DNA of 64,000 nt from Desulfomonilia bacterium. GTDB taxonomy: Bacteria > Desulfobacterota > Desulfomonilia > UBA1062. The position numbers and the translations under genes were made by a program. Of this stretch, positions 3 through 17,111 are shown one piece after another. How positions within the stretch are numbered: position 1 is the stretch's first letter; every line of letters begins with the position of its first letter. The DNA is taken from positions 96,001 through 160,000 of the forward strand of contig JBEKDT010000009.1 of assembly GCA_050014195.1 (NCBI GenBank), written 5' to 3'. The notes beneath the pieces were generated by a model. The model ran no database searches, was not told where the DNA came from, and saw only the letters and a list, made by a program, of their open reading frames with translations.

Positions 3-1295
3 ACGAGAGAGACTTTTTTTAAGAACATCTATCAACTTAAAGGTGGTGAATATGCAATTCTTGATTTAAATAAGAGGACATTCGAAAAGAAAAGATATTA
101 TGATTTAAACGGTATTAATAAATTAGTTTGCAAAGAGTCGGACTATTATCTTCGTTTCAGGGAACTATTTACTGACTCTGTCAAACTAAGATTGAGAAGT
201 GATGTTCCAGTTGGGAGCTGTCTTTCTGGCGGGCTGGATTCATCAGCCGTAGTTTCAATTATCGCAACACTATGGAAAGAGAAAGAGAGGGTTTTATTTA
301 ATACATTTACTGCGTGCTGGGACGATAAAAAGATAGATGAGAGAAAATATTCAGAAGCAATTGTTGAATCCTCAGGCTTCAGCGGCAACTTTATTTATCC
401 TTCCTCTGAAGATCTGACAGAGGACTTGGCCAGTCTTCTTTGGCATCAGGAAGAACCCTTTGGAAGCCTTTCAATTTTTGCTCAGTGGTCCGTCATGAAA
501 GCAGCACAAAAGAAGGGTATAAAAGTTCTTTTAGACGGTCAAGGAGGAGATGAAGTTTTTTGCGGATATGAAAGATATTATGCATATTATCTATCAGCTC
601 TATTGAAGCAGTTTATGCTTAGGGAATTCATTAATGAGTTTATAAAAGGTGTAGAAAATTCTAAACTAAAATTATCCGGAATGATCTTATATTATATTTA
701 TTTTAATTGTGTACATGTTCGTGCCCTACGTCATCATATTAAATCATATAGAATATTAAATCCAAATTTTTTCATGAATTATGACATATTAGTTCGTCTT
801 AAAAATGGCTTTAAAGAAGCTAATGATTTGTCTGAGCTTCAAAGAAACGAAATTCAAGGAGTTCAACTTTCACATCTTCTTAAATATGCTGATAGAAATT
901 CTATGGCTTTTTCTATTGAAACACGGCTACCATTTCTTGATTATAGATTAGTTGAATTTGCATTATCAATTCCCATGGGATTATTAATCCATGATGGATG
1001 GACTAAAAATATAGTAAGAGAAGGTCTGAAAAGGATAATACCAGATGAAATTAGGAGAAGGAAAGATAAGATTGGGTTTGAAGTTCCACAAGATTTATTT
1101 ATAAAACATATCTTAGAAAATTATTTTAATGATATTAATGAAAATAGCTTGATTAGCACATATTTCAATAAAAAATGGTTATTAAAAGATATAAAAACTA
1201 TAAGTCGAAAAAACCCTATCATATGGAAAACATTATGTCTAGATTTATGGTTCAAAGTATTTTTTGAAAACGCCTATAATAATTTTAATCAATGA
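3..1295 (+). CDS. asnB: Asparagine synthase (glutamine-hydrolysing) family amidotransferase, 5'-truncated by window edge; probably amidates a polysaccharide sugar
   Basis: RSDVPVGSCLSGGLDSS, LDGQGGDEVFCGY and DRNSMAFSIETRLPFLD motifs; frame open back to position 3. Confidence 0.9.
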   Translation, partial: TRETFFKNIYQLKGGEYAILDLNKRTFEKKRYYDLNGINKLVCKESDYYLRFRELFTDSVKLRLRSDVPVGSCLSGGLDSSAVVSIIATLWKEKERVLFNTFTACWDDKKIDERKYSEAIVESSGFSGNFIYPSSEDLTEDLASLLWHQEEPFGSLSIFAQWSVMKAAQKKGIKVLLDGQGGDEVFCGYERYYAYYLSALLKQFMLREFINEFIKGVENSKLKLSGMILYYIYFNCVHVRALRHHIKSYRILNPNFFMNYDILVRLKNGFKEANDLSELQRNEIQGVQLSHLLKYADRNSMAFSIETRLPFLDYRLVEFALSIPMGLLIHDGWTKNIVREGLKRIIPDEIRRRKDKIGFEVPQDLFIKHILENYFNDINENSLISTYFNKKWLLKDIKTISRKNPIIWKTLCLDLWFKVFFENAYNNFNQ

Positions 1296-2470
1296 GTAAT
1301 ATAGATATCAGACATAGAATTGCTTTTATTATACCTCTTTTTATTTATGCAGGTTATTTTAAGTCATCAACATTTGATTTTGCTAGGTGGTATTCAGATC
1401 TTACTTTTTGGTTATTAATTTTTATTATATTAGTTCAATTATCTAAGATAAATTCTAATAAGATTCACTTTCGCAAATTCAATCCGGTCTTTTTCATCTT
1501 CCTGCCAATATCGTTCATGATATTGATTTCTGTTCTATTCGGCGAACTAACATCTAATGGTTTAATAAAAATGAAAGGTTTTATAGTAATATTAATCCCT
1601 ACTGTTCTAGTCAGCTTCTGGGTCATAAAGAATGAAGCTGATCTTAAGTACTTAGGTAATGGAATCATTGCATTGGGGCTTTTTACCAGTGCATATATTT
1701 TATCTAATTCAATATATAAGTCATGGGGAAATGTACAGTATTTGTCCTGCGGCACTATGACATCATTGGGCGGGCTTGTTTCAATTCATAGATTTTTAGT
1801 TGAGATCAAGAAGAGATGGTTTTACTTTTTATCATGTTGTATCTGTTCTATAGGTGTTATAGTAAGCTATGCACGTGGCCAGCAACTTATCTATTCCTTA
1901 ATATTATGTTCCATGTTGACATATTATTTTTGCTTTATCCGAGAGAAAATAAAGAAGAAAGTTATAGTGATATTCTGTCTAATTATATTATCAATACTTA
2001 TACTAATTGTTTACAATACCAAGTTAAGCTTGGATGAGAATTTTCTATATAGATTTGGTGAGAATTATTTTGAAGAAGGATTAGATTTACGATTTATATT
2101 ATTTGAAAATGCTCTGACATTATTCAGACAAAACCCCTTCATCCCGGCTGGAATAGGACAATACTCAGTAGAATTTCAAGGAGAAATAATTAGATATCCA
2201 CATAATATACCCTTAGAATTTGCTGCAGAGTTTGGTTTTATTGGACTTCTTTATTACTGCTTATTAATCATGGGAGTTTTTTATGGTTATTTACGATTTA
2301 GAAAAAACAAAATTATTAGAGAACATCTAATTATATACGTTTTTCTTTTTTTAATATCCTTAAAACAAGGATATATTTATGAGGATAAGGATTTCTGGAC
2401 ATGGTCGGCTTTAGGCTTAGGATTTTTAGGTTGGCATAGAGTAGTTCTTGACAGGTATGGATCCAGATAA
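1292..2470 (+). CDS. O-antigen polymerase/ligase (Wzy/WaaL-like) membrane protein
   Basis: Multi-TM, very AT-rich, S-x-x-R-G loop and YPHNIPLE motif of the Wzy_C domain; polysaccharide locus context. Confidence 0.75.
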   Translation: MSNIDIRHRIAFIIPLFIYAGYFKSSTFDFARWYSDLTFWLLIFIILVQLSKINSNKIHFRKFNPVFFIFLPISFMILISVLFGELTSNGLIKMKGFIVILIPTVLVSFWVIKNEADLKYLGNGIIALGLFTSAYILSNSIYKSWGNVQYLSCGTMTSLGGLVSIHRFLVEIKKRWFYFLSCCICSIGVIVSYARGQQLIYSLILCSMLTYYFCFIREKIKKKVIVIFCLIILSILILIVYNTKLSLDENFLYRFGENYFEEGLDLRFILFENALTLFRQNPFIPAGIGQYSVEFQGEIIRYPHNIPLEFAAEFGFIGLLYYCLLIMGVFYGYLRFRKNKIIREHLIIYVFLFLISLKQGYIYEDKDFWTWSALGLGFLGWHRVVLDRYGSR

Positions 2471-2503
2471 AAGAAAAAGAAGAAGATCTAACTGTAATAG
2501 GCA

Positions 2504-3670
2504 GTGTGGTACATCAAGACTAATTTGGCAGATACATTTAAAATGATAGCAACTGCAATCCTAACATCAGCCCACGACATATCTGACACCCGAATTTTTT
2601 ATAAAGAATGCAAAACTCTTGCAGGAGCTGGATACCAGGTCACCTACATTGTACCACATGAACAGGATCATTTTCTTAATGGAGTGTGTATTCATTCTGT
2701 CCCAAAGCCTAAAAACAGATTGGATCGCTTCATTTATACAATTTGGAATGTGTATAAGGCAGCAAAAATCGAAGATGTAGAATGTTATCATTTCCATGAT
2801 CCTGAACTAATACCCATTGGTTTGTTATTGAAGATTAAAGGTAAAAAGGTCATCTATGATGTACATGAAGATGTACCCAAACAGATTCTGAATAAAAATT
2901 GGATTCCTTCTATTCTCAGATCTGTAGTGTCTAAGGTTACAGGTTTTGTTGAACATCTAAGCGCGTTGTTCTTTGATGGGATAATTGCAGCTACACCAGA
3001 TATTGCTAGTAATTTTCCTGAAACAAAAACAATCATTGTTCAAAATTTTCCTATTCAGCACGAATTAACAACATCTCATCCTACGCCATATTGTAAAAGA
3101 TCCCCAATCATTGCATACGTAGGAGGGATATCAGAAATTCGTGGTATTAAGGAGATGATCCGTGCAATGAGCATACTAAAGCCACATTGCGGGGCGTGTA
3201 TACATATAGGTGGCACATTTTACCCATCCAATCTAGAAGAAGAAGTAAAAAATCTAACAGGTTGGGCTCATGTAAAATACATGGGTTGGCTATCCCGTGA
3301 GCAGATTTCACATCTGCTCAATAACGCAAGAATAGGTTTAGTTCTCCTTCATCCGAAAAAAAATTATCTACTAAGCTATCCAATAAAATTGTTTGAATAT
3401 ATGTCAGTGGGAATCCCTGTTATAGCATCTGATTTTCCGCTTTGGAGAGAAATTATTGAAGGCGCAGGTTGTGGTCTTCTGGTTAATCCCCTTGATCCAA
3501 AAGCCATTGCAGATTCAATACTATGGTTGCTCGAACATCCTGAAGAAGCCGAAATCATGGGGAAAAGAGGACAAGAGGCAGTTAGACATCGATATAATTG
3601 GCAGAATGAAGAAATTAAGTTATTAGATTTTTACAGCAAGATCCTAGGTAACATAAATAATTGTATCTGA
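2504..3670 (+). CDS. Glycosyltransferase family 4 (start may be ATG 2543)
   Basis: TSAH..DTRIF, HFHDPEL, PIKLFEYMSVGIPVIASDF GT4 motifs. Confidence 0.9.
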   Translation: MWYIKTNLADTFKMIATAILTSAHDISDTRIFYKECKTLAGAGYQVTYIVPHEQDHFLNGVCIHSVPKPKNRLDRFIYTIWNVYKAAKIEDVECYHFHDPELIPIGLLLKIKGKKVIYDVHEDVPKQILNKNWIPSILRSVVSKVTGFVEHLSALFFDGIIAATPDIASNFPETKTIIVQNFPIQHELTTSHPTPYCKRSPIIAYVGGISEIRGIKEMIRAMSILKPHCGACIHIGGTFYPSNLEEEVKNLTGWAHVKYMGWLSREQISHLLNNARIGLVLLHPKKNYLLSYPIKLFEYMSVGIPVIASDFPLWREIIEGAGCGLLVNPLDPKAIADSILWLLEHPEEAEIMGKRGQEAVRHRYNWQNEEIKLLDFYSKILGNINNCI

Positions 3671-3671
3671 A

Positions 3672-4349
3672 ATGTTACTACTTGATTGCGCTGATAAAAG
3701 CATGAGGAGAAAAGATTTGTTTGAAAGGATTCTCATTTTAGCACCACACACGGATGATGGTGAATTTGGTTGTGGTGGAGCGATATCAAAGTTTATCGAT
3801 TTGGGGAAGGAAGTGTATTATGTTGCTTTTTCGGATTGTAAAAAATCCCTTCCTCCGGATATGGCGCCTGATACCCTAGTGAAAGAACTAATGAGCGCAA
3901 CCAAGATACTAGGTGTCCCTCCTTCGAATGTTATCGTAAAAGAATTTGAACTACGGTGCTATGAAAGAGATCGACAAGAGATACTTGAGGAGATTATTAT
4001 CATCGGGAAAGATATTAACCCTGATCTAGTGTTCTTGCCCTCACCAAATGATTTACACCAGGATCATGAGACGATAGCTATGGAAGGTCTCCGCGCCTTC
4101 AAGCTGTCAGCTACAATTCTCGGCTATGAAATGCCTTGGAATAATTTGACATTTAATACTACTTGTTTCATAGGCCTGACAGAACAAAATCTTCAAAAAA
4201 AGGTCGAGGCGCTTCGATGTTACAAGTCTCAAGCTGAAAGATTTTATGCGACAGAGGAATTGGTTCGATCTTTGGCAATCACAAGGGGAACTCAAGTAAA
4301 CACACACTATGCTGAAACCTTTGATGTGCTTAGATGGCTTATAAAATAA
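3672..4349 (+). CDS. PIG-L/LmbE family deacetylase
   Basis: LAPHTDDGEFGCGG and HQDH metal-binding motifs; YKSQ near the C-terminus. Confidence 0.9.
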   Translation: MLLLDCADKSMRRKDLFERILILAPHTDDGEFGCGGAISKFIDLGKEVYYVAFSDCKKSLPPDMAPDTLVKELMSATKILGVPPSNVIVKEFELRCYERDRQEILEEIIIIGKDINPDLVFLPSPNDLHQDHETIAMEGLRAFKLSATILGYEMPWNNLTFNTTCFIGLTEQNLQKKVEALRCYKSQAERFYATEELVRSLAITRGTQVNTHYAETFDVLRWLIK

Positions 4350-4389: not shown

Positions 4390-5718
4390 ATGAAGCACGA
4401 CATTGATGAATTGGAAACACTCACTTATGAGCAGAGCTATAATGGAATAGATAGGGCTCTTCTCATACAGCAGCTGAAGTATGTCGCAGAAAACAGTCTT
4501 TTTTATCTGGAGAAATACGAAGAACATCGTTTAGAAAAAAATGATATCATCGACGTGAATAACTTTGAATTAGTGCCCTTTACTTATAAAGAAGAACTAT
4601 TGAGAGAGCAGGAAAAATATCCACCATTTGGTCGCTTGGCAACAAAGGATAATCAACACCATCTTCGTCGTGTACACATGACTTCAGGTTCAACAGGCAG
4701 ACCTCTGTATGTTGTATTAACTGAGAATGATTTGTTTGCAACTGTTGAAGCAGGACGTCGGGCATTTCTCTGTGCTGGGCTTAATGATGAAGATACGGTT
4801 ATTCACTGTCTGAACTACTGCTTATGGGCTGGAGGGCTGACTGATCACCTCAGTCTTGAGGCTACAGGTGCTACGGTTATCCCCTATGGCGTTGGGAACA
4901 CCAAACAACTTCTTCGGACAATTATTAATCTGAGACCAACAGCCATTTCTTGCACACCATCTTATCTGACAAGGCTGGAGTATATTTTGCGTGAGGAGTT
5001 TCAGTTATCCCCTGCTGCCCTTGGTCTTGAAAAGGCGTTCTTGGGGGGTGAGGGAGGTCTACAGAACCCGTTGGTGCGATCACGTATTGAAGAAACATGG
5101 AAAATGAAAGCAATTGATGCCAACTATGGAATGGCCGATGTCTTGAGTATATTTGGAGCGGAATGTGAGGCTCGAACAGGGTTGCATTTTCATGGGCAGG
5201 GTATCTTATATCTCGAACTCATTGATCCTTCATCTAATAAGAATTTACCAGTTGTAGATGGAGTAGTTGCTGAAATGGTTTTAACGAATCTAAGAAGAGA
5301 AGCTCAGCCTCTTGTGAGATATCGTACCAGAGATCTCATTCAAATTGTGTCAACCAGCCAATGCACATGTGGACGAAAATCATTCCGATTCCTTGTAATG
5401 GGGCGCACAGATGACATGATCACAGTTCGTGGTATTAATGTCTACCCAAATGCAATTGCAAATATCCTAGTGAAGCATCCAGAATGGTTCAGTGGAGAAT
5501 ATGAACTTATTGTGGATACACCTCCCCCAATTGAAATGCCACTCTTGCGGGTTGAATTATCTGCAAGTATTGAGTCAATTAATAATGAATCGCTTAGTTA
5601 TTATTTGATTAAAAAGTGTCATGAAAATCTTAATTTCAGACCCCGTATAGAGTTCATGGCACATGGTCATTTTCCCCGGACTGAAGGTAAGACCAAAAGA
5701 CTTAGGAAGATATACTGA
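4390..5718 (+). CDS. Phenylacetate-CoA ligase (PaaK)-like adenylating enzyme
   Basis: TSGSTGRP, YGMAD, RYRTRD, GRTDDMITVRGINVYP, C-terminal GKTKR. Confidence 0.85.
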   Translation: MKHDIDELETLTYEQSYNGIDRALLIQQLKYVAENSLFYLEKYEEHRLEKNDIIDVNNFELVPFTYKEELLREQEKYPPFGRLATKDNQHHLRRVHMTSGSTGRPLYVVLTENDLFATVEAGRRAFLCAGLNDEDTVIHCLNYCLWAGGLTDHLSLEATGATVIPYGVGNTKQLLRTIINLRPTAISCTPSYLTRLEYILREEFQLSPAALGLEKAFLGGEGGLQNPLVRSRIEETWKMKAIDANYGMADVLSIFGAECEARTGLHFHGQGILYLELIDPSSNKNLPVVDGVVAEMVLTNLRREAQPLVRYRTRDLIQIVSTSQCTCGRKSFRFLVMGRTDDMITVRGINVYPNAIANILVKHPEWFSGEYELIVDTPPPIEMPLLRVELSASIESINNESLSYYLIKKCHENLNFRPRIEFMAHGHFPRTEGKTKRLRKIY

Positions 5719-5884
5719 ATAAGATATCTTGCCACCTATAATTTAGGGATACTGATGAACAAGCGAACTCATCTATTAAGAGATTTAGTAGGATATCTTC
5801 ATCTGAAAAGATTACGAATTATCCTTCACACTATTTTACCTCAATTAATGTGTATTGATCAAAAGTCATTAGGGGGATATTAAT

Positions 5885-6766
5885 TTGAAAGTAATAACTA
5901 GTATGCACATTGCACAGTTCCTCGGGAAAACTTTACAAGGAGAACCAAACCCGATTTTTAAACCTGCAAACCTAAGCGATTGTGGACCGAATGATATTGT
6001 CTGGGTGAAAAGCTATACACAGGAACGACTTATTTTGCTTGAAAAAAGACAACCAGGATTAGCTATCTGTGATATGAAAACATCAGAAAAAACAACAGTT
6101 CCTACTATTCTATCAGAAAATCCACGGCTTGATTTCATTCGTGTGCTAAACCATTTTTATCTTGAGAAGAGAGAAGCTTGTATACACCCCACTGCAATCA
6201 TTGAGAAGAGCGCAACAGTTGGCAAAGATGTTACCATAGGTGCATATGCCTATATAGGTCATGATGTATTAATAGGTGACGGATGCAACATAGGAACTGG
6301 TGTAGTCATAGAAGGCAAAGTTTGCCTAGGAAATAGGTGCGTTATAAAGTCTAATGCTGCCCTTGGTGGACAGGGATTTGGTTTTGAATATGATGAATAC
6401 GGAAATCTAATTCATTTCCCGCATCTTGGAAGTATTATTACTGAAGATGATGTCTGGATTGGGTCCTGTTCTACAGTAGAAATTGGAACACTTGGAGCTA
6501 CTAGGATTTTTCGTGGTTCAAAAATTGATGATCTGGTTCAAGTGGGACATAATGTCACTGTCGGTCGAAACACGCTAATAATGGCAAACACAGTTCTTTG
6601 TGGTGGTTGCAGTATAGGTGAGAGGTGCTGGATAGCACCGAACAGTGTCATAAAAGAAAAGGTAAACATTGGGGACAATGTTACAGTTGGGCTAGGATCA
6701 GTGGTGCTAAGAGATGTAGAGGATGGAGTTGTAGTAGCAGGAGTTCCGGCAAAACCTCTCCAATAG
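5885..6766 (+). CDS. LpxD-like hexapeptide-repeat acyltransferase 1
   Basis: NPRLDF N-domain, hexapeptide repeats, GFGF, KIDDLVQVGHNV (catalytic His kept), GVPAK; TTG start. Confidence 0.8.
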   Translation: MKVITSMHIAQFLGKTLQGEPNPIFKPANLSDCGPNDIVWVKSYTQERLILLEKRQPGLAICDMKTSEKTTVPTILSENPRLDFIRVLNHFYLEKREACIHPTAIIEKSATVGKDVTIGAYAYIGHDVLIGDGCNIGTGVVIEGKVCLGNRCVIKSNAALGGQGFGFEYDEYGNLIHFPHLGSIITEDDVWIGSCSTVEIGTLGATRIFRGSKIDDLVQVGHNVTVGRNTLIMANTVLCGGCSIGERCWIAPNSVIKEKVNIGDNVTVGLGSVVLRDVEDGVVVAGVPAKPLQ

Positions 6767-6808
6767 AACGTGAAATTAAAGAGTCTGTTTTAAGAGTGGA
6801 GGTTAATA

Positions 6809-7723
6809 ATGTATCGTATAAAAAAGTTCGAGATTAGGGCATCAGAGATAGCCGATTATCTCAATGAACAGCTTGTAGGAAATGATTTCATCATTACAAG
6901 TCCTCATTCCATTAGAACATACAAATCTTCTGAACACTCATCGATGGAAGTCAATAGAAGTCGAAGCCAGATATTGATCATTTCTGATCATCCTGTGCCA
7001 GTAGATTTATGTACAGGCTATATAATTTCACAGAACCCTGATCTTGACTTGGCATATATATTACGCGAATTTTTCTCTACAGCTCCAATTAACCAAATCC
7101 ATTCATCTGCGATGATTTCAGAAGAAGCCCGTATAGGGAGAAATGTAATGGTAGGTGCTCATACTATTATTGGTCCTGATGTTACAATTGGAGATAACAC
7201 AAAAATTTTTCATAATGTTGTAATAAATGGCCTTGTCCATATTGGCAAATTCTGTGTTATCAAAGATGGCGCAGTTATTGGTAGTGAGGGATGGGGTTTC
7301 ATTGACGATGAAGATGGTATTCCCTTTCATCCTCCTCAATTAGGTCTTATCAGTATTGAAGACAGGGTTTGGATAGGTTCGAACTCAACAATTGAACGTG
7401 GCATGATTGAAGAAACAGTGATTCATGCTGATGTAAAAATCGACGACCTTGTTCATGTCGGGGCAGGATCACACTTAGGACAAAAAAGTAAACTCACTGC
7501 AGGTGTTGTAGTAGCTTCTCATGTTACAATAGGGGAAAATGTTTATATTGCACCCAATGCAGTAATTCGGGAAGAGTTGAATATTGATGATGACGTAGTT
7601 ATTGGCATGGGTGCAGTTGTCATTAACAATCTTACTTCTGGCAATAGATATGTAGGCAATCCAGCCCGATTAATCAGAAAGAAGAAAAGGCAGACTGATG
7701 ATGAAAAAGATACAGTTTCCTGA
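6809..7723 (+). CDS. LpxD-like hexapeptide-repeat protein 2 (catalytic His position is Ala)
   Basis: Hexapeptide repeats, GSEGWGF, KIDDLVHVGAGS, GNPAR. Confidence 0.8.
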   Translation: MYRIKKFEIRASEIADYLNEQLVGNDFIITSPHSIRTYKSSEHSSMEVNRSRSQILIISDHPVPVDLCTGYIISQNPDLDLAYILREFFSTAPINQIHSSAMISEEARIGRNVMVGAHTIIGPDVTIGDNTKIFHNVVINGLVHIGKFCVIKDGAVIGSEGWGFIDDEDGIPFHPPQLGLISIEDRVWIGSNSTIERGMIEETVIHADVKIDDLVHVGAGSHLGQKSKLTAGVVVASHVTIGENVYIAPNAVIREELNIDDDVVIGMGAVVINNLTSGNRYVGNPARLIRKKKRQTDDEKDTVS

Positions 7724-8786
7724 AAAGATTACTCCATTTCTTCGTGAAAAACTTGCCCTCTTGGAATCATCTTTTGGGTCAGATTCCAATGAATACAGAG
7801 GGCTTTCTCTTCAATATATTTTGAGCCCTTTAGAAGCAAAGGAAACTATCGAGCAAAATCTCAAGCATTATGATGCAGGTTTGTATCTTAATGAAGCTGA
7901 AGGAGACTTACCTGGAATAGAAAGACTATATAGGAATGTACTCGTTATTGAACCAACCTTGGTATGTCTTGCCCATTGTCGCTACTGCCTTCGGAGCAAC
8001 TACACAAAACATACATTAACAGAGAGGCAATTGATCGATGTAGCGAAGTATTGCGGCAATTCTAGCAATAGAGATATTTTGAACGAAGTTCTTATCACCG
8101 GCGGGGATCCCCTTATCATACCTCAACGTTTGGAAGTTCTTTTAAATGCTCTGATAGACTATGCACCAAATATTAAAACTATCAGGATAGGGACACGTCT
8201 TCCTGGTCAGGATCCAGCACGTATAGATGAAAATGTAATTAGTCTTTTTATTAATAAACCAACTTTAAGGTTTGAATTGGCGACTCAGATCAATCACCCG
8301 GTAGAGTTTTTCCCTGAGGTTGAAGAGGCTTTTCTCAAAATCTCAGATTTAGGAGTAAAGATATATGCGCAGAATGTCCTTCTTAAAGGAGTAAATGACC
8401 AAATTGATGCGTTGGTTGAGTTGTATAATAGGATGCGGGTTAATAATATCGAAGCTCATTATTTATTCCATTGCGTGCCTATGGTTGGAATTCATCATTT
8501 AAGAACTACCATTGCGAAGGCTCTTATACTGATAAAAGATCTTGTTTGTTCTGGAAAAATATCAGGCAGAGTTAAGCCCATGCTTGCAGCTATGACAGAT
8601 ATCGGAAAGATAACCTTCTATGAAGGTGTTATACGTGATCGGAGAGATAATAGGGTTTTGTTGCAAAGTAACTACCAATTTGCTGACCGTATTGCATGGA
8701 ATCCATCATGGCAGCTTCCTGAATCTGCAGGAATAGATGAGCACGGCCTACTACGTGTGTGGTATATTGATGGTGATGACTCCTAA
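7698..8786 (+). CDS. KamA-family radical SAM protein (amino acid 2,3-aminomutase-like)
   Basis: CLAHCRYCLR, ITGGDPL, IRIGTR, QINHP, QNVLLKGVND, C-terminal GK (putative PLP Lys). Confidence 0.85.
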   Translation: MMKKIQFPEKITPFLREKLALLESSFGSDSNEYRGLSLQYILSPLEAKETIEQNLKHYDAGLYLNEAEGDLPGIERLYRNVLVIEPTLVCLAHCRYCLRSNYTKHTLTERQLIDVAKYCGNSSNRDILNEVLITGGDPLIIPQRLEVLLNALIDYAPNIKTIRIGTRLPGQDPARIDENVISLFINKPTLRFELATQINHPVEFFPEVEEAFLKISDLGVKIYAQNVLLKGVNDQIDALVELYNRMRVNNIEAHYLFHCVPMVGIHHLRTTIAKALILIKDLVCSGKISGRVKPMLAAMTDIGKITFYEGVIRDRRDNRVLLQSNYQFADRIAWNPSWQLPESAGIDEHGLLRVWYIDGDDS

Positions 8787-8805
8787 TATAGCTATGTGAA
8801 ATAAG

Positions 8806-8949
8806 ATGAGAACCTCGGCAAACAAAAAACAACACCATATCTGGATTTTCAACCATTATGCGATTACTCCTGATCTTCCTGGGGGAACCCGTCACTACCA
8901 CATTGCGTATGAACTCGGTCGGAATGGTTATGATGTAACAATATTTGCC
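8806..8949 (+). pseudogene. N-terminal fragment of a GT4 (WbuB-like) glycosyltransferase
   Basis: HIWIFNHYAITPDLPGGTRHY..A.EL...GYDVTIFA, then similarity stops abruptly. Confidence 0.75.
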
Positions 8950-9179
8950 ATGAATTGGGAGCAGTCACTTATATTTCAGGCAAAGGTGGCGATAACTATC
9001 AAGATCATTTCAAATTTAAGATGGCTGGTATCAACCTGGAAGTAAAGACCTATAAGCCAATACCGTATGACCAGAAAACTGATTTGTTCATGCCAGGACT
9101 CAGCATAATGGATGCATTGTTTAATCTTGGTAAATCTACAATAAATCTAATGAACTATTCCGCAGCAAGCGGCGAATAA
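8940..9179 (+). pseudogene. C-terminal fragment of a WbqC-family protein
   Basis: NICHELGAVTYISGKGGDNY ... Y.Q....FMPGLSIMDALFNLG, the typical WbqC C-terminus; N-terminal part missing. Confidence 0.75.
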
Positions 9180-9201
9180 TGAAACTCATAGAGATTGAAT
9201 T

Positions 9202-10503
9202 ATGAGAATTTGGTTAGTTTCTATAGGTGAACCAATACCAACAAGCGCTGACAGTAATTCTCGACTGCTTCGGACAGGATATTTTGCTAATTTACTGTCA
9301 CAATATGGCAATGATGTAATCTGGTGGACTTCTGCATTTGATCACTTTAGAAAAACACAGCTTTGTACTACGGATACTGATTTGGTTATTAATCAACATC
9401 TTACTATCAGGCTTTTGTGTGGCTCTGGATACAAAAGTCATGTGTCGCTAAGACGGGTCTGGGATCACTGGAAAATCTCTAGGAAGTTTTCTTCGGCCAT
9501 AAAGAAGCAGACTATGCTTCCGGATATAATTTTAGCTGCATTACCTACGATAGATCTCTGTTATGAGTCAGTTGTGTTCGGGAATCAGCAGGGAATACCC
9601 GTAGTTCTTGATATGCGAGACATGTGGCCAGATATTTTTGTAGATCTCGCTCCTGATTTCTTAAGACCATTAACACGACGCCTCTTAAGTTATCAGTTTC
9701 GAAGAGCTGGATATGCATGCGAAAAAGCTACAGCTATTATTGGGATAACAGATGAATTTGTTGCATGGGGTTTAAAACGGGGACAACGATGTAAGCAAGA
9801 ATTCGACAAATCATTCCCCTTTGGATATTCGATTCAGGCCATAACAAGAGAATCTGAAGAGAATGCAATTATTGAACTCAATCATCGAGGGATCCATTTT
9901 GATGACGATAACCTATATGCCCTTTATATTGGGTCGCTCAGTCGCAATGCGAACTTGGGTGATATCATATCTGCAAGCAGAATTCTTTATGAGCAAAACT
10001 CAAAATGGAAGTTTATTGTATGTGGCGATGGTGATTGTGTTGATCTAATATTAAATCATATTAGTAAATATCCAAATGTAAAATACGGGGGTTGGGTAGA
10101 TAGAACAATGATTCATAGTCTAATGCGACGATGTCATGTTGGTTTAAATCAACTTCCTGATCGATACGATTTTCTTGCCACCATTAATAACAAAGCCATT
10201 GAGTATATGAGCGCGGGTCTCCCTATCATTTCAAGTCCGGATCGGGGTGTTCTATGTGAGCTTCTCAAGATGCATGAGTGCGGGATAAGTTATCCTTCTG
10301 GTGATGCTGGGGCTCTGGCTTCGACGCTTACACGGTTTTATGATGACCAGGGTATGCTAAGGAAAATGTCGCAGAACGCCATGCAGCTGTTCCAAGAACG
10401 TTTTATTGCAGAAAAGATTTATACAGAGATGATGGAGCATTTGGTGATGATAGCGGAAAATCAAAATCAATCTGTTAGAACAGGTGGTCAGGATTGGGCA
10501 TGA
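9202..10503 (+). CDS. Glycosyltransferase family 4
   Basis: DMRDMWPD and NKAIEYMSAGLPII motifs. Confidence 0.85.
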   Translation: MRIWLVSIGEPIPTSADSNSRLLRTGYFANLLSQYGNDVIWWTSAFDHFRKTQLCTTDTDLVINQHLTIRLLCGSGYKSHVSLRRVWDHWKISRKFSSAIKKQTMLPDIILAALPTIDLCYESVVFGNQQGIPVVLDMRDMWPDIFVDLAPDFLRPLTRRLLSYQFRRAGYACEKATAIIGITDEFVAWGLKRGQRCKQEFDKSFPFGYSIQAITRESEENAIIELNHRGIHFDDDNLYALYIGSLSRNANLGDIISASRILYEQNSKWKFIVCGDGDCVDLILNHISKYPNVKYGGWVDRTMIHSLMRRCHVGLNQLPDRYDFLATINNKAIEYMSAGLPIISSPDRGVLCELLKMHECGISYPSGDAGALASTLTRFYDDQGMLRKMSQNAMQLFQERFIAEKIYTEMMEHLVMIAENQNQSVRTGGQDWA

Positions 10504-10525
10504 CATATTTTCGGGATAGATATCT

Positions 10526-11419
10526 ATGAACAGACTGGATGACATTATGATTGACGATAAAGTACAGCAGAAAATTGAGTATCGGCCATCTCTGGCCGGG
10601 TGCTTAGCACGGATTTTCATACCCCTGTTGCAAGCAGTACTCCCACCAAAAGCATACCGTGTGATCTATGATGGACTCTATGAGAGTTACAAGCAGATTC
10701 TCAGATCGAGCTATGTAGTTAGGGTTATCGCAGCAAGACTCTTTAGCGATCAGGAGCAGCAGTTAAAGACATCACTCACTCATCAGTTACTGCCCTACAC
10801 TATGGGGGGATGGAAGGCGCTCGAGAACGCATTCAAAGTGACTGCCCTTGTCGAACAAAAAAAGATTGAAGGTGCTTTGGTTGAGTGCGGCGTTGCAAAG
10901 GGTGGTACTGCTGCGATGATGGCCTTAACAAATCGAAAGCTTGGCACAATTATGCGGCCTAAGTGGTTTTTCGACTCCTACGAAGGCCTACCTGAACCGA
11001 CTGCTGAAGACTATGAAGGTGGGAAACAGGGCCACTTTATTCGTCCTCTTACAAAAGGGGCCTGTCTGGGGACCATTGAGCAAGTTAGTGATTTGATGTT
11101 CAATAAATTGCACTTGCCCAAGAATGAGGTTCATTTGGTGAAGGGCTGGTTCCAAGACACGGTGCCTGTTTATCGTGAGAGGATCGGGCCAATTGCCATG
11201 CTGCGTTTGGATGGTGACTGGTATGAGTCTACCAAGATACCGCTGGAAAATCTTTTTGATCAAATTAGTATTGGCGGGTTTGTAATCATTGATGATTACG
11301 CAACCTGTTTTGGTTCTCGTAAGGCGGTGGACGAGTTTCGGGCTGAGCGCAGTATCACCTCGTCGCTTCGGCCTGATGGGCGTGGAGGCGCCTGGTTCGA
11401 GAAGCATGAGGCGAAGTAA
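10526..11419 (+). CDS. TylF/MycF/NovP-family sugar O-methyltransferase
   Basis: VECGVAKGG, FDSYEGLP, KGWFQDT, LRLDGDWYEST, IIDDY. Confidence 0.9.
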   Translation: MNRLDDIMIDDKVQQKIEYRPSLAGCLARIFIPLLQAVLPPKAYRVIYDGLYESYKQILRSSYVVRVIAARLFSDQEQQLKTSLTHQLLPYTMGGWKALENAFKVTALVEQKKIEGALVECGVAKGGTAAMMALTNRKLGTIMRPKWFFDSYEGLPEPTAEDYEGGKQGHFIRPLTKGACLGTIEQVSDLMFNKLHLPKNEVHLVKGWFQDTVPVYRERIGPIAMLRLDGDWYESTKIPLENLFDQISIGGFVIIDDYATCFGSRKAVDEFRAERSITSSLRPDGRGGAWFEKHEAK

Positions 11420-12075
11420 TGAAAACATCGCCTGAAACACCGATCGCTTTTCCCGAAAGGTGGATCTATGTATTGTTGAAGCGAGTAATGGATGTAGTCG
11501 GTGCCATGGCGGGGATATTAGTCTTGGCGCCTTTGCTTATCTTGATTGCTGTCGTCTTAAAATTAACATCACAAGGACCGGTTTTTTACCGTGGTGTGCG
11601 CGCCGGATTGAACGGAAAGCCATTTCGTATCTTCAAATTCAGAACAATGTTAGAGAATGCCGAGTCTTTGGGCGGGCCCACTACAAGTACTAACGATCAA
11701 AGAGTAACGCGTATTGGAGCCTTGCTTCGTCGAACCAAGCTTGATGAGTTCCCACAGCTCCTGAATGTCTTGGCTGGTGATATGAGCCTCGTGGGGCCTC
11801 GGCCGGAAGTGTTGGAATATACCTCACAATACAAAGGTGAGGAGAAATATATTCTCAGCATGCGTCCCGGGATAACTGATTATGCATCAATTGAATTTGC
11901 CGATCTTGATGATCTGGTGGGAAGCACAGACCCTGACAAATACTTCCGTGAACATATCCTACCTCGTAAGAATGCATTGAGAGTCAAATATGTGAAAGAA
12001 TGGTCATTGGGTTCTGATTTTGGCATTCTTTGGGCTACTTTTCTCAGGGTGATGAAGAGAATTGCTGCGCAATGA
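11419..12075 (+). CDS. Bacterial sugar transferase (initiating phosphoglycosyl transferase)
   Basis: [32 protein letters not shown]. Confidence 0.92.
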
Positions 12076-13016
12076 GTATCTTGGAGAGAATGCATCTCGG
12101 TCGAACCGGGCTTTATATCAGTCGCCTCGGAATGGGCTGTTGGGCTATTGGGGGTCATGGTTGGGGCCAGGTGAGGGATGAGGATTCTATCCGAGCCGTC
12201 CAGGGCGCATTAGAGAATGGAGTCACATTCTTTGATACAGCAGATGCCTATGGGCTTGGAAAGTCTGAGACATTACTTGCTAAGGTATTAGGTTCGTCCA
12301 TTACTCAAGTTGTCATCGCAAGTAAAGGGGGCGTTCGATGGAATGAAAGTGGAAATATATGGTCCGATAGTTCACCTGCCTACCTGAGACTGGCTGTAGA
12401 AAATAGTTTAAGACGATTGAAGCTTGATTGTATTCCCCTTTACTATATCCATAAACCTGATGAGGTAACGCCTATACAGGAGAGTGTTGCTGCCCTTGAG
12501 CGCATGTGTGAAGAAGGTAAGATAGGCGCCATAGGCGTCGCAAATTTCTCTGCCGATCAATTGCTGCAGGCATTGCAGGTTGCTCTGGTAGCAGCGGTTC
12601 AGGTACGTTTAAATATTTTTGATAGAGATACGAGTAAAGAGTTATTGGGCATTTGCAGAGAGCATGGCATAACTCTTGTTGCTTGGGGCGCACTTGCGGA
12701 TGGATTGTTAACCGGTAAATTTTCAACCAATACAAAGTTCTCTGAAGATGACCACCGTAACAGAATGCCTGAGTTTACAGGGAATAATTTTTTAAAGTAC
12801 GACAAATGTCTAAAATTACTTAAGCAGTTGGCTGCCGATAGGGGACGGAAAGTTGGTCAACTTGCACTTCGGTGGGTGCTGGATTTTGAGCCTTTTACAT
12901 GTTCGCTGTTTGGTGCAAAAACAGATATTCAGGTAATGGATAATTTGGGAGCAGATGGGTGGAGCTTAACAAAAGAAGAGCTTGCAGCTATCGATTCCAT
13001 AGTGGCTGAACTTTGA
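12072..13016 (+). CDS. Aldo/keto reductase
   Basis: LGRTGL.ISRLGMG, FDTADAYG.G.SE, SLRRLKLD; ATG 12072 overlaps upstream TGA. Confidence 0.9.
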   Translation: MSILERMHLGRTGLYISRLGMGCWAIGGHGWGQVRDEDSIRAVQGALENGVTFFDTADAYGLGKSETLLAKVLGSSITQVVIASKGGVRWNESGNIWSDSSPAYLRLAVENSLRRLKLDCIPLYYIHKPDEVTPIQESVAALERMCEEGKIGAIGVANFSADQLLQALQVALVAAVQVRLNIFDRDTSKELLGICREHGITLVAWGALADGLLTGKFSTNTKFSEDDHRNRMPEFTGNNFLKYDKCLKLLKQLAADRGRKVGQLALRWVLDFEPFTCSLFGAKTDIQVMDNLGADGWSLTKEELAAIDSIVAEL

Positions 13017-13023
13017 AGATGAT

Positions 13024-14001
13024 ATGACTTACTCAATTGATATTTTGTGTGATTTGTATAAAACAATGTTTCGTATCCGCTCTTTCGAAGAGAGCCTGGT
13101 GGAACCCATCCTAAACAGCGAGATCCGTACACCCTGCCATCTTTACAGCGGTCAGGAGGCCGTTGCGGTCGGTCTCTGTACGGCCCTCTCCAAGGATGAT
13201 TACATCTTTGGTAATCATCGCTCACATGGCCATTTCCTGGCCAAGGGGGGCTCCCTGAAGGCTATGGCGGCTGAGATTTATTGCCGTGAGGCAGGTTGCT
13301 CCAGGGGCCGTGGGGGCTCTATGCACCTGATCGATCCGGATGTGGGTATGCTGGGATCGGCACCGATAGTGGCCGGGACTATCTCCCTGGCACTTGGGGC
13401 GGCGCTGGCCTCTTCCATTCGAAAAGACGGTCGTGTGACAGTGTGTTTTTTCGGAGACGGGGCCACAGGCGAAGGCGTCCTTTACGAATCCCTGAACTTT
13501 GCCGCCTTGAAAAAACTCCCTTTGATATTTGCCTGTGAAAATAATCTTTATGCTACGCATATGCCTATCCGGGAATGCCGGGTAAACCTGCCGATCAGCA
13601 GGATCGCAGAGCCCTTCGGCATAGAGATTCATACGGTGGATGGTAACGATGTGTTGCAGGTCCGTGATGAAGGTCAACATGCAGTGGAAACCTGCCGCAT
13701 TGGTAATGGACCCGTATTTATGGAGTTCATGACCTATCGATACCGAGGTCATGTAGGCCCGGATGACAACATACAGGGTAATCATACAGATATAAGGCCC
13801 AGGGAAGAAGTCGCCATATGGATGGAAAAGGATCCCATCAAGAAATTCGAACGATACCTGACAGATCAAGGAATGATGGATGAGAATGAGCTGCAGGATA
13901 TCAGGAACGAGGTTGCTGATGAGATACGGGATGCAAAGGATTTCGCAATAAATAGCCCACGCCCGTCGGGAGAGGATCTGACGAAATATGTCTTCGCATA
14001 G
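13024..14001 (+). CDS. TPP-dependent dehydrogenase E1 alpha subunit-like
   Basis: HLYSGQEA, HRSHGH, GRGGSMH, GDGA...ENN TPP motif, TYRYRGH. Confidence 0.9.
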   Translation: MTYSIDILCDLYKTMFRIRSFEESLVEPILNSEIRTPCHLYSGQEAVAVGLCTALSKDDYIFGNHRSHGHFLAKGGSLKAMAAEIYCREAGCSRGRGGSMHLIDPDVGMLGSAPIVAGTISLALGAALASSIRKDGRVTVCFFGDGATGEGVLYESLNFAALKKLPLIFACENNLYATHMPIRECRVNLPISRIAEPFGIEIHTVDGNDVLQVRDEGQHAVETCRIGNGPVFMEFMTYRYRGHVGPDDNIQGNHTDIRPREEVAIWMEKDPIKKFERYLTDQGMMDENELQDIRNEVADEIRDAKDFAINSPRPSGEDLTKYVFA

Positions 14002-14971
14002 GACACTCCAGTACGGCCTGGCCATTAACGAGGCGCTCCACCAGATGATGGAGATGGACAGCTCCGTTTTTCTCATCGGGCAGGGGGTGGAAAGCCCCTG
14101 GTATGTGGGCAATACTGCACAGGGGCTTCTGGAGAGGTTCGGGAAAGGACGGGTCATTGACACACCAGTGTCCGAGAATGCCATTACAGGGGCAGCCGTA
14201 GGGGCAGCCATCGCAGGTATGAAACCAGTGGTGGTTCATCCCAGGGTGGATTTCATGATGTACGCCATGGACCCAATCATAAACGAGGCAGCTAACTGGT
14301 TTTATATGAACGGCGGCAGGGCTTGTGTACCGGTCGTTTTTTGGGGTATCATAAACAGAGGTGGAGAACAGGCAGCCCAACATTCACAGGCTATTCATGC
14401 GTTGTTTGCTCATTGTCCAGGTCTCAAGGTCGTAATGCCGTCAACCCCTTATGATGCAAAGGGATTACTCATATCAGCTGTAAGGGATATGAACCCAGTT
14501 GTTTATATTGATGATAGGTGGCTGTATAATCTGGAGGATGTTGTTCCGGAAGAAATGTATGAAGTCCCCATTGGTCAAGCTATAGTTAGAAAAAAAGGTA
14601 AGGATGTAACAATCGCTGCGGTCTCTTATATGGCGCATACTGCTCTGAAAGCATCTGAGAAACTCCTAGATCTTGGTATTGATTGTGAATTGATCGATCT
14701 GCGGAGTATAAAGCCATTGGATAAGAATACCCTATTACAATCAGTTCGAAAAACAGGCAGATTAGTAATTGCTGATGTAGGATGGAAATCATTCGGAATT
14801 AGCGCTGAGATAGCTGCTATTGTTTGTGAGGGGGCCTTCAAAGAATTAAAAAGTCCGGTTGTTCGAGTTGCCCTACCCGATACACCAGCCCCTGCGAGTA
14901 GATCGCTAGAGGGTCAATATTTTCCTAAAGAAGATGACATAATAAAGGCTGTTCAAGGTATTATTAATTGA
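13988..14971 (+). CDS. TPP-dependent dehydrogenase E1 beta subunit-like
   Basis: DTPVSENA, AAQHSQ, PYDAKGLL, DLRSIKPLD. Confidence 0.9.
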   Translation: MSSHRTLQYGLAINEALHQMMEMDSSVFLIGQGVESPWYVGNTAQGLLERFGKGRVIDTPVSENAITGAAVGAAIAGMKPVVVHPRVDFMMYAMDPIINEAANWFYMNGGRACVPVVFWGIINRGGEQAAQHSQAIHALFAHCPGLKVVMPSTPYDAKGLLISAVRDMNPVVYIDDRWLYNLEDVVPEEMYEVPIGQAIVRKKGKDVTIAAVSYMAHTALKASEKLLDLGIDCELIDLRSIKPLDKNTLLQSVRKTGRLVIADVGWKSFGISAEIAAIVCEGAFKELKSPVVRVALPDTPAPASRSLEGQYFPKEDDIIKAVQGIIN

Positions 14972-15164
14972 TAACATGTGTCTATAAATAATCATGATGT
15001 TCAATATATGTGTTATATCTTTTTTATTATTACAATATTTTGAATAAAGGGGTATATGTTTGCCTAACAAGACCCCTACCTAAGCTCCAAGATAAAGCAT
15101 CATTGAAGTGGTGATTTTGAGATATTGTGCGCTCAAATGTTTCATAACGAGGTAAAAATTTAAA

Positions 15165-17111
15165 ATGAAAATTCTCCGCAAGGGAAATTTTTGGATCATT
15201 TTTCTTTTTGACATAATCATTTTGATAACATGTTATTATGGGGCATATTGGCTTCGCTTTGAAGGTAACTTAGATGTACAACTCCAGGTTCAGTTTTTAT
15301 ACACGCTCCTACCATTATTGATAGCTCAGCAATCCTCATTTTTTATCTTTGATGTATATCGCGGTATGTGGAGATATGCTGGTATACGCGATCTGATAAA
15401 TATTGTTAAGGGCACTGTATGTGGGACCTTTATATTTATTATTTACCTAGTGTTACTCTATCACTTCATAGGCTTTTCAAGAGGGGTCATCTTGATAAAT
15501 ATGCTCATGACCATCATAGGTATCGGCGGTTCCCGCCTTATAATACGCCTCTACTACCAGAAAGATAGCGCGTTTGTGGATGAGTTAGTGTTCTGGCGAA
15601 GATCGATCCGGAACAGAAAGAATATCCTCATCCTGGGCACAAGTCCACAGGCAGAAAGGCTTATGAGAGAGATCCATGAGAACAATAAGATCAATTACAA
15701 GGTAATTGGATTCATTGATATGTGGAATGTTCATAAGGGAATGAAGATTCATGGGGTTCCTATTCTGGGCTCGGTAATGGATCTTCCCAGGTTGGTCATG
15801 TATTATAATATTGAGGACATCCTTATCGCTGATTCGAATCTCAAGGCACATGATATTAGTAGGGTCATAGAGATGTGTGGGGATTGCGGTATCCGGTTCA
15901 AGATAGTCCCGTCCCCATTTGAGAGAATGCTTCAAGGTGAATCAGACAACCTCAGGGATATAAAACTTGAAGATCTCATGGACCGGGAGCCTGTCCAGCT
16001 GGATATGGAGATAGTAAAATCAGAGATAGAGGGGCAGACGGTACTCATTACCGGTGCCGGTGGATCCATTGGTTCCGAGCTCTCAAGGCAGATCTTCAGA
16101 TACAATCCTGCAAAACTGATCTTGATCGATAATTCCGAAACACCGCTTTACCAGATCGACATGGAACTGAATACCTTAAGAGCTACTGATTGTGTAACGG
16201 AGATTGTACCTTGCATAGGAGACGTGCGGAGCCGGAGGAGTCTGGAGCGAATATTCCGCAAGTATAAACCCCGGTATGTTTATCACGCAGCCGCATATAA
16301 ACATGTGCCTATGATGGAGTTGTCCCCGGTAGATGCCATTAACAACAACATTATAGGCACATTTAAACTGGCCACTCTTTCGTGCAAGTATCATGTAAAG
16401 AAATTTGTCCTGATCTCCACAGACAAGGCTGTTCGGCCTACATCGGTCATGGGTGCCACTAAAAGGGTTGCAGAACTGGTCGTACAGGCCATTACCGGAA
16501 ACGGAACAAGATTTGTAGTCGTAAGATTCGGCAACGTACTGGGTAGCAATGGTAGTGTGGTACCCCTTTTCCAGAAACAGATTGCTTCAGGAGGGCCGGT
16601 AACGGTTACGCATCCTGAAGTCACCCGCTACTTTATGACCATACCCGAGGCTGTCATGCTGGTCCTCCAGGCAGGTGCCATAGGAAAAGGCGGGGAGTTG
16701 TTCTTGTTGGATATGGGCAAGCCAGTGAAGATTGATGGTCTGGCAAGGAACATGATACGTCTTTCAGGGCTTGTGCCGGATAAAGATATTAAGGTTGAAT
16801 ATATCGGCCTCAGGCCCGGAGAAAAGCTCTATGAGGAATTGCTCATAGACGGTGAGGACATCATTGATACACCCTATGAAAAGATTAAAGTCTGCAATAC
16901 ATATAGCAGGATAGATGAAAAAGAACTCTTTGAGGGTATCGAGCATTTCAGTCTCCTCTTGAAGAACTCCGAGGGCTTTGATGCCGCTCTTAAAATCCTT
17001 GAAAGACTTGTTCCCGATTTCAAGAGAGAAGTCACTTCTGTTTTACGAACAAATATAACGAATCCTTATTCTCCTGGTGATCCTACCAAGGCCCAACCCA
17101 AAGAATACTGA
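15165..17111 (+). CDS. Membrane-anchored UDP-GlcNAc 4,6-dehydratase (PglF/WbpM/CapD family)
   Basis: N-terminal TMs, TGAGGSIGSE, HAAAYKHVP, STDKAV, RFGNVLGS.GSV, GLRPGEKLYEEL. Confidence 0.93.
   Translation: MKILRKGNFWIIFLFDIIILITCYYGAYWLRFEGNLDVQLQVQFLYTLLPLLIAQQSSFFIFDVYRGMWRYAGIRDLINIVKGTVCGTFIFIIYLVLLYHFIGFSRGVILINMLMTIIGIGGSRLIIRLYYQKDSAFVDELVFWRRSIRNRKNILILGTSPQAERLMREIHENNKINYKVIGFIDMWNVHKGMKIHGVPILGSVMDLPRLVMYYNIEDILIADSNLKAHDISRVIEMCGDCGIRFKIVPSPFERMLQGESDNLRDIKLEDLMDREPVQLDMEIVKSEIEGQTVLITGAGGSIGSELSRQIFRYNPAKLILIDNSETPLYQIDMELNTLRATDCVTEIVPCIGDVRSRRSLERIFRKYKPRYVYHAAAYKHVPMMELSPVDAINNNIIGTFKLATLSCKYHVKKFVLISTDKAVRPTSVMGATKRVAELVVQAITGNGTRFVVVRFGNVLGSNGSVVPLFQKQIASGGPVTVTHPEVTRYFMTIPEAVMLVLQAGAIGKGGELFLLDMGKPVKIDGLARNMIRLSGLVPDKDIKVEYIGLRPGEKLYEELLIDGEDIIDTPYEKIKVCNTYSRIDEKELFEGIEHFSLLLKNSEGFDAALKILERLVPDFKREVTSVLRTNITNPYSPGDPTKAQPKEY

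Follow-up and report, generated by a model that had tools for sequence, protein, structure and literature searches.

An uncharacterised clade of KamA-like proteins without the lysine-binding aspartates, in a conserved cassette proposed to decorate surface sugars with beta-amino acids

What does a protein of the lysine 2,3-aminomutase (LAM) type do once the residues that hold lysine are gone, and what is its role in a surface-polysaccharide cluster? The question is raised by a 64,000-nucleotide stretch of a Desulfomonilia bacterium genome (GenBank assembly GCA_050014195.1, contig JBEKDT010000009.1, positions 96,001 to 160,000; hereafter the window), in which an intact frame of 362 amino acids on the forward strand (7698..8786) encodes a KamA/LAM-like, radical S-adenosylmethionine (SAM), pyridoxal phosphate (PLP)-type protein (P0001, hereafter the KamA-like protein). 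Its start overlaps the 3' end of an upstream acyltransferase gene by 26 nt, and both stand in a cassette within an O-antigen-type cluster low in guanine plus cytosine (GC). Judged by its residues, the KamA-like protein belongs to a so far uncharacterised clade in which lysine binding has probably been lost. The reading we favour, with rather better than even confidence, is that a radical SAM/PLP aminomutase makes a beta-amino acid other than beta-lysine, which, once converted to its coenzyme A (CoA) thioester, is attached through an N-linkage to an amino sugar freed of its acetyl group. Overall, the locus is best described as holding a member of an uncharacterised KamA-like clade in a conserved cassette that would decorate surface sugars with beta-amino acids.

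The best NCBIfam matches of the KamA-like protein are all KamA-type models, and it scores far under the cut-off of each: 112.8 bits against 525.4 for the lysine enzymes AblA/KamA (TIGR03820), 121.3 against 369.3 for EpmB (TIGR03821), 112.4 against 650 for glutamate 2,3-aminomutase (TIGR04368), and 112.1 against 600 for arginine 2,3-aminomutase (TIGR04468). Pfam detects the general Radical_SAM domain alone, and a protein atlas lookup returned unnamed radical SAM clusters alone. The sole PDB sequence relative is LAM from Clostridium subterminale (2A5H), at E = 1e-26 by pairwise HMMER and 9e-35 with a profile of 35 family members. An AF2 model built on the alignment of the same 35 members (pLDDT 90.2, pTM 0.89) has 2a5h_B as its best Foldseek match (E = 3.5e-22, TM 0.69), 15 orders of magnitude ahead of the runner-up, a viperin-like enzyme at about 1e-6. 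The KamA-like protein is accordingly modelled with the LAM fold.

Residues were mapped onto LAM with four alignments (HMMER in pairwise and in profile mode, hhalign against a set of 18 canonical sequences, and MAFFT L-INS-i over 114 sequences), and invariance was counted in the alignment of the 35 family members, which are 54-78% identical to the KamA-like protein. The CxxxCxxC motif for the [4Fe-4S] cluster and SAM (C90/C94/C97; 7965-7988, forward strand) is recovered in all four, and two residues past its last Cys stands R99, which aligns with LAM R134 (motif and Arg together span 7965..7994 on the same strand). Both are invariant in 35/35 family members and in 22/22 rows of the clade described below. 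K304 of 'DIGK' matches LAM K337 in all four alignments, and with a Lys at this column in 22/22 clade rows and 62/62 canonical rows it is the predicted PLP-aldimine Lys. In LAM, K337 reportedly forms the PLP aldimine and R134 binds the alpha-carboxylate, while D293 and D330 are said to bind the epsilon-amine of lysine. Altogether, the canonical majority residue is kept at 35 of 48 invariant or near-invariant positions, including the Cys triad, R99, the GG motif, Q225, N233, and G303-K304. Shared with LAM are therefore the fold, the CxxxCxxC motif, the following Arg, the GG(D/E) SAM motif, and a PLP Lys in a G-K dipeptide; a first-pass annotation of the window, made by eye, had already listed the motif, the Arg, and the Lys as kept, and the four alignments bear this out.

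The same annotation had claimed that both lysine-binding aspartates are lost, with 'YQCD293' reading 'FHCV' and 'VVD330A' reading 'AAMT'. The first replacement appears in all four alignments, which place V260 (8475..8477, forward strand) at the Asp293 position. The second lies in the 'MTDIGK' segment (8592..8609, forward strand), which holds M299 at the Asp330 site, a near-invariant D301, and K304. Relative to LAM, two residues are missing from the loop ahead of the PLP Lys: hhalign and MAFFT L-INS-i pair D330 with M299 of 'AAMT', and profile HMMER instead drops LAM V329-D330 into a two-residue insertion. The pairing of M299 with D330 is supported by two representatives that have the short loop and keep the Asp pair (P0161 and P0164, 'FIVDTRIGK'): they carry their Asp exactly five residues before the Lys in the MAFFT alignment, where the KamA-like protein has M299. 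An acidic residue at either site, which would have refuted the earlier claim, was found in none of the alignments. The missing C-terminal Cys cluster is likewise real, with no Cys past residue 284 and no LAM_C match in Pfam.

The active site appears more remodelled than these two losses alone would make it. The canonical 'RYPDR' reads 'RLYRNV' at residues 76-81 (7923-7940), both Arg being replaced (L77 and V81); the first is Leu in 21/22 clade rows and the second Thr, Val, or Ser in 18/22. The canonical Tyr before 'Y-x-x-x-C-D' is His in 22/22 clade rows (H254 here; 8457-8459). Compared with LAM, the KamA-like protein therefore has Val for Asp293, Met for Asp330, Leu and Val for the 'RYPDR' Arg residues, a shorter loop, and no LAM_C. 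Its N- and C-terminal regions also differ from those of LAM and are conserved inside the clade.

These replacements are not peculiar to one protein. A tree built from 111 rows, the 114 aligned less three odd ones (P0136, P0168, and P0170), places the KamA-like protein in a clade of 22 rows with support 100 and a stem length of 0.8. Both Asp sites are hydrophobic in all 22: the D293 column holds V in 11 rows, I in 8, L in 2, and C in 1 (canonical rows: D in 62/62), and the D330 column holds M in 20/22 and L in 2/22 (canonical rows: D 56 and E 6 of 62). The four key columns read RDDK in 56/114 aligned rows, RDEK in 6/114, and RVMK in the KamA-like protein. A T-D dipeptide precedes the Lys in 20/22 clade rows, the other two having 'SD' and 'SQ'. 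The 35 family members share 65 invariant columns, M299 and K304 among them, and have V, I, L, or C at position 260; 'KPM.AAMTDIGK' serves as a family signature. The pattern indicates that loss of the Asp pair is fixed clade-wide and is neither chance nor a one-off. The clade is nested within a short-loop group of 38 rows, mostly without the Asp pair; the canonical side of the tree has 68 rows, and 43/111, about a third of the sampled family diversity, lie outside the canonical Asp-pair group. The relatives are numerous, with more than 700 at E <= 0.001; the best 120 of these are 55-100% identical, about 360 amino acids long, and, where a name is given, called 'lysine 2,3-aminomutase', 'radical SAM protein', or 'hypothetical protein'. 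One relative, P0029, is 72% identical and is encoded by a strain of Geomonas oryzisoli. When 1.84 billion representatives were searched exhaustively, 2312 matched, 47 of them at E <= 1e-30.

The genome of the window (4.2 Mb, 29 contigs) also encodes a second KamA homologue on another contig (P0271, 446 amino acids) that keeps both Asp in 'YQCD' and 'VVDAPGGGGK', passes the KamA family model TIGR00238 with 353.5 bits, and reaches 476 bits with the lysine model. Because the Asp loss is clade-wide and a separate canonical paralogue is present in the genome, the KamA-like protein probably acts on a different substrate, and the earlier proposal of a new substrate is well supported. Its further suggestion of a neutral or hydrophobic substrate is one option only, given the invariant R291 and K293 and the near-invariant D301 close to the PLP Lys.

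Which substrate this might be is suggested in part by other enzymes. To our knowledge, only three substrates are established for radical SAM 2,3-aminomutases: lysine, glutamate, and arginine. Of these, lysine and glutamate are named as such in the literature consulted. The review PMC9850924 singles out the mutation of one active-site Asp between PLP and SAM (D331G or D339H in the two source enzymes) as the key change shared by lysine 2,3-aminomutases that gained alanine 2,3-aminomutase activity; if this Asp corresponds to D330, as we infer, a small neutral substrate becomes plausible. Our leading guess is alanine, 2-aminobutyrate, or another small or neutral amino acid. The engineered alanine 2,3-aminomutases, derived according to that review from the Bacillus subtilis and Porphyromonas gingivalis LAMs, gained small-neutral activity through a lost Asp, and the KamA-like protein is naturally without the D330 equivalent; however, they are laboratory mutants that keep Asp293 and the long loop, whereas the clade is natural and deeply diverged.

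The neighbours of the KamA-like gene offer a functional frame that goes beyond the first-pass annotation: LpxD-like acyltransferases, a PIG-L deacetylase, and a polysaccharide setting. Upstream lies a PaaK-type (short ANL) adenylate-forming CoA ligase of 442 amino acids (4390..5718, forward strand; Pfam AMP-binding and AMP-binding_C_2). Its PDB relatives are all CoA ligases, among them 4R1L (E = 3e-56), 6HDW (E = 4e-46), and 2Y27, and include a 2-hydroxyisobutyryl-CoA synthetase; on the PaaK models it reaches 211-222 bits, under cut-offs of 646-700 (TIGR02155: 211 against 646.3). The ligase is followed by two LpxD-like left-handed beta-helix N-acyltransferases on the same strand. Acyltransferase 1 (293 amino acids, 5885..6766; Pfam Hexapep) exceeds the cut-off of the LpxD subfamily model NF002060 (277 bits against 207) and matches the PDB LpxD structures 2IU8 and 3EH0 at E of about 1e-32; the alignment brings its final residue to about position 310 of Escherichia coli LpxD, a protein of 341 residues that thus runs on for about 30 more. 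Acyltransferase 2 (304 amino acids, 6809..7723) is a paralogue, 38% identical to the first, and stays under the subfamily cut-off at 175.5 bits. On the lipid-A LpxD equivalog model both score under the cut-off of 242.5, and both are set among polysaccharide genes, not lipid A genes. Ahead of the ligase, a PIG-L/LmbE-family de-N-acetylase of 225 amino acids is encoded on the same strand (3672..4349; Pfam PIG-L). No carrier-protein gene was found in the gaps 5718-5885 and 8786-9202, other small open reading frames (ORFs) of the cluster having been scanned in part.

To see whether this arrangement recurs, 34 related loci were collected by an alignment-seeded scan of contigs from one genome per species; a single-protein locus search returned none. 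By tblastn, the ligase adjoins the KamA-like gene in 23/34 loci, and ligase and LpxD-like gene stand beside it together in 21/34, or 22/34 with one locus added by ORF clustering (L006). One locus (L016) reaches its contig edge just past the KamA-like gene. The loci are spread over Desulfobacterota-type genomes, Planctomycetota, Omnitrophica, Porphyromonadaceae, Calditrichales, Bacillota, and Patescibacteria. When neighbours within 8 kb were clustered over 24 of 35 places (the 23 ligase-positive loci and the window), the trio of aminomutase, ligase, and LpxD-like gene was alone in being widely shared, followed by PIG-L (7/24) and glycosyltransferases (6/24). No co-conserved decarboxylase, aminotransferase, or amino-acid pathway gene was found in these 24 places within 8 kb. 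Over all 34 loci, PIG-L is present in 7, and a CE4 deacetylase takes its place in three (L009, L012, and L017); a GNAT gene lies near the cassette in three. Both acyltransferase paralogues recur in L001, L003, L004, and L031, and in four loci the trio lies among NeuB, CMP-transferase, PseB-type dehydratase, or DegT genes of nonulosonic-acid pathways. P0122 is a natural fusion of 651 amino acids that joins an LpxD-like protein to an aminomutase of this type, its LpxD N-terminal domain falling just under the cut-off. The annotation had also seen a fit between the aminomutase and a neighbouring arylacetate-type ligase. The link to the ligase is real, but 'arylacetate' describes a fold family and not a substrate, as the 211 bits against 646 indicate.

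The favoured pathway can be laid out as follows, the aminomutase chemistry, the CoA carrier, the order of steps, the acceptor, and the substrate all being inferred by homology. The [4Fe-4S] cluster on C90/C94/C97 would cleave SAM to a 5'-deoxyadenosyl radical. An alpha-amino acid, bound to PLP as an aldimine in place of K304 and with its carboxylate on R99, would lose its C3 hydrogen to the radical, and its amino group would then migrate to C3. The PaaK-type ligase would adenylate the resulting beta-amino acid and thioesterify it to CoA. The PIG-L deacetylase would expose the free amine of a nucleotide-linked amino sugar, onto which one or both of the LpxD-like acyltransferases would move the beta-aminoacyl group; acyltransferase 2, as a guess, would cap the new beta-amine or serve the second amine of a diamino sugar. 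The decorated sugar would finally be built into a Wzx/Wzy-type O-antigen or exopolysaccharide.

Parts of this scheme have counterparts in well-known systems. In lipid A synthesis by LpxC and LpxD, a UDP-amino sugar is N-deacetylated and then N-acylated by an LpxD-type beta-helix enzyme. The cassette would follow the same logic, but its deacetylase is of the PIG-L type and not LpxC, and where LpxD uses an acyl-ACP, the donor here would probably be a CoA thioester from the PaaK-type ligase. AblA and AblB couple an aminomutase gene to an acyltransferase gene, the beta-amino acid being the acceptor; in the cassette, the beta-amino acid is instead proposed to be the acyl group. EpmB (YjeK), which acts in the beta-lysylation of EF-P, resembles the KamA-like protein in being a short KamA-family member of about the same length that has no long LAM C-terminus. 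Unlike the KamA-like protein, however, the EpmB-type representatives P0210 and P0226 keep the Asp pair ('RDDK') and fall on the canonical side of the tree, and the partner of EpmB is an EpmA-type ligase where the KamA-like protein has a CoA ligase and sugar acyltransferases. Eam/IdnL4 of incednine synthesis and the arginine aminomutase of the BlsG type are precedents for a substrate change through the Asp-pair residues; these feed a polyketide or a nucleoside antibiotic, whereas the product of the KamA-like protein is proposed for a glycan and its replacements are hydrophobic. PMC11284099 describes IdnL4 as supplying a beta-amino acid to a biosynthetic pathway and names glutamate 2,3-aminomutase as the model for it.

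Four other explanations were weighed. The one that fares best, though we consider it unlikely, holds that the substrate is not a free amino acid and that the enzyme carries out a radical, PLP-assisted migration, deamination, or epimerisation on a pathway amine such as a deacetylated amino sugar or an aminoacyl thioester. The cassette always lies within amino-sugar pathways, a deacetylase that frees a sugar amine adjoins it here, and the protein both fails the KamA-family cut-off and has lost further canonical residues. On the other hand, R99, which matches the Arg that holds the alpha-carboxylate in LAM, is kept in 22/22 clade rows, the constant partner is a carboxylate-activating ligase that needs an acid, and a deacetylase is present in only 7/34 loci as PIG-L plus 3 as CE4.

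Slightly less credible, and in our judgement improbable, is a basic-amino-acid 2,3-aminomutase acting on lysine, ornithine, or arginine, in which other acidic residues, D301 beside the PLP Lys for instance, would grip the distal amine and a beta-lysine-like residue would end up on the sugar. All hallmarks of an alpha-amino-acid head group are kept, D301 is near-invariant, E193, E203, and E207 are invariant in the family, and the loop at the D330 site is remodelled and two residues shorter, so that a neighbouring residue could take over. Yet both Asp sites are hydrophobic throughout the clade, while canonical members, including the EpmB-type and AblA-like-2-type ones, keep the pair. E203 is also invariant in canonical enzymes (E306, 62/62) and is thus not a new lysine ligand, and a canonical paralogue is already present in the genome.

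We give the same low standing to an acidic-amino-acid 2,3-aminomutase, in which the side-chain carboxylate of glutamate or aspartate would rest on R291 and K293, and beta-glutamate or a related product would serve for sugar acylation. Both residues, invariant in 35/35 family members, immediately precede the strand with M299 on it, and glutamate 2,3-aminomutase, reportedly an enzyme with a swapped Asp pair, is a precedent for such an exchange. However, the score on the glutamate 2,3-aminomutase model is 112 bits against a cut-off of 650, the replacements are hydrophobic and neither basic nor amide, and R291 and K293 could equally make up for the lost 'RYPDR' arginines. Finally, a decaying or non-catalytic paralogue without an enzymatic role, to which the scores under all curated cut-offs and a gene remnant directly downstream might point, is very hard to reconcile with the intact frame, the 65 invariant columns that include every cofactor motif in relatives 54-78% identical, the more than 700 relatives at E <= 0.001, the synteny kept across phyla, and the natural fusion.

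Several points nevertheless weigh against an aminomutase that feeds beta-aminoacyl-CoA to sugar acylation. The KamA-like protein fails even the general KamA family model (TIGR00238, 131.1 bits against 199.2), and the changes at L77, V81, and H254 could mean cofactor binding or chemistry unlike that of LAM. D301, R291, and K293, the first near-invariant and the others invariant in the 35 members and all close to the PLP Lys, could hold a charged side chain, contrary to a neutral substrate. CoA may not be the carrier that the LpxD-like proteins use, and no clade member is known to have a particular activity, product, or glycan structure. Since motif patterns drawn from the family itself served to fetch the 34 loci, these are a biased sample, and 11/34 are without ligase and acyltransferase. 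These trio-less loci are mostly 41-44% identical ones from actinomycetes, Cupriavidus, and Lachnospiraceae, plus L008 and L024; in 7 of the 11 no substrate clue was found, L020 showing a teichoic-type cluster with PIG-L, L028 a KAS III and AMP-binding pair, and the others genes without any relation to these. Together with fusions to ATP-grasp ligases in two representatives (described below), the 11 partnerless loci mean that use of the aminomutase product is not uniform.

A stronger form of the proposed pathway would make the KamA-like protein the first natural radical SAM 2,3-aminomutase whose substrate is a small neutral amino acid (for instance alanine, giving beta-alanine, or 2-aminobutyrate, giving 3-aminobutyrate) and the trio a widespread, undescribed route that replaces N-acetyl by beta-aminoacyl groups on O-antigen, capsule, and nonulosonic-acid sugars; taken as a whole, this is a tentative and rather doubtful proposition. 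If true, beta-aminoacyl groups would add a free amine, and so positive charge, to the surface of many anaerobes. Full-text searches of a collection that covers few subscription journals turned up no account of a KamA-type gene within a glycan cluster or of a beta-aminoacyl sugar, and absence there is not proof. One paper with a promising title proved to concern glutamate-1-semialdehyde aminomutase, and two others dealt with MIO-type enzymes or cited the history of LAM. More generally, a natural clade with a re-lined pocket would widen radical SAM aminomutase chemistry and offer a possible biocatalyst for beta-amino acids, which, going by PMC9850924, have so far been sought by mutating LAM. What the trio suggests is an N-acyl decoration of bacterial surface glycans of a class not yet recognised, one that would affect charge, antigenicity, and phage or immune recognition, and the trio could serve glycan chemists as a genetic marker. 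Current annotation names the non-canonical KamA-like proteins 'lysine 2,3-aminomutase' or just 'radical SAM protein'.

The cassette is embedded in a longer run of polysaccharide genes, all on the forward strand. Pfam assigns to positions 3..3670 an AsnB-type amidotransferase (which begins outside the window, upstream of it), a Wzy-type polymerase, and a GT4 glycosyltransferase; then come the PIG-L deacetylase, the ligase, acyltransferases 1 and 2, the KamA-like gene, and an N-terminal GT4 glycosyltransferase remnant (8806..9045). The remnant is 76% identical over 42 amino acids to a gene at L001:11127-12377, where the same GT4 gene stands intact after the KamA-like gene, and it matches the first approximately 45 residues of that protein. 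From its sequence, it would be a recombination scar or a pseudogene remnant. Two short ORFs lie in this 416-nt gap after the KamA-like gene (8806-9179), the second at 8955-9179 and 74 amino acids long. Beyond it, positions 9202..17111 encode, by Pfam and in this order, a GT1 glycosyltransferase, a TylF-type methyltransferase, a Bac_transf initiating transferase, an aldo-keto reductase, E1 alpha, E1 beta, and a WbpM/PglF-type dehydratase. L003 has the same run of genes, with identities of 55-88%, the trio genes being 62-74% identical. GC content is 0.368 over positions 1-9200, 0.448 over 9201-17111, and 0.488 over 17112-64000, and the region 1-17111 looks like a mosaic, horizontally exchanged region of the serotype type. 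Upstream of the window (L038, G000:C9:78001-97300) are genes for a DegT aminotransferase, Wzz, a flippase, a nucleotide-sugar dehydrogenase of 551 amino acids, a GFO/IDH/MocA sugar 3-dehydrogenase fused to a hexapeptide acetyltransferase, and the full AsnB-type amidotransferase of 651 amino acids. This upstream set suggests a 2,3-diamino (2,3-diacetamido-like) uronic-acid pathway.

The wider family holds further variation at the Asp-pair sites. An 'other' group of 26/111 tree rows is also without the Asp pair and shows signatures such as RMVK, RMAK, KMVK, RFIK, RYAK, RNNK, RDNH, and more. The NCBIfam scan of representatives covered 80 of the 150 listed, and among those scanned no lineage of this group passed an equivalog cut-off; two of the 80 were labelled EpmB-type and two AblA-like-2-type, and none glutamate or arginine aminomutase.

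Association with ATP-grasp enzymes is a second recurring theme. The gene of the canonical paralogue P0271 (L035, G000:C21:44861-48832) overlaps a D-Ala-D-Ala-ligase-like ATP-grasp gene, and five distant representatives (P0173, P0184, P0252, P0256, and P0257) are fusions of just these two kinds of domain. KamA and ATP-grasp together look like a recurrent, apparently uncharacterised aminomutase-ligase pair. Inside the hydrophobic-pair clade, P0127 (772 amino acids) and P0128 (786 amino acids) are fused to an N-terminal ATP-grasp ligase, and in some lineages the aminomutase product is apparently ligated by another enzyme type.

Two further gene sets recur near the cassette. A B12-binding radical SAM protein (506 amino acids, L005:16540-18060) is found in L005, L007, and L017. 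In the window, the aldo-keto reductase and the thiamine-dependent E1 alpha/beta pair at 12030-14971 are conserved with L003, and they may add a two-carbon branch or an acyl group to a sugar.

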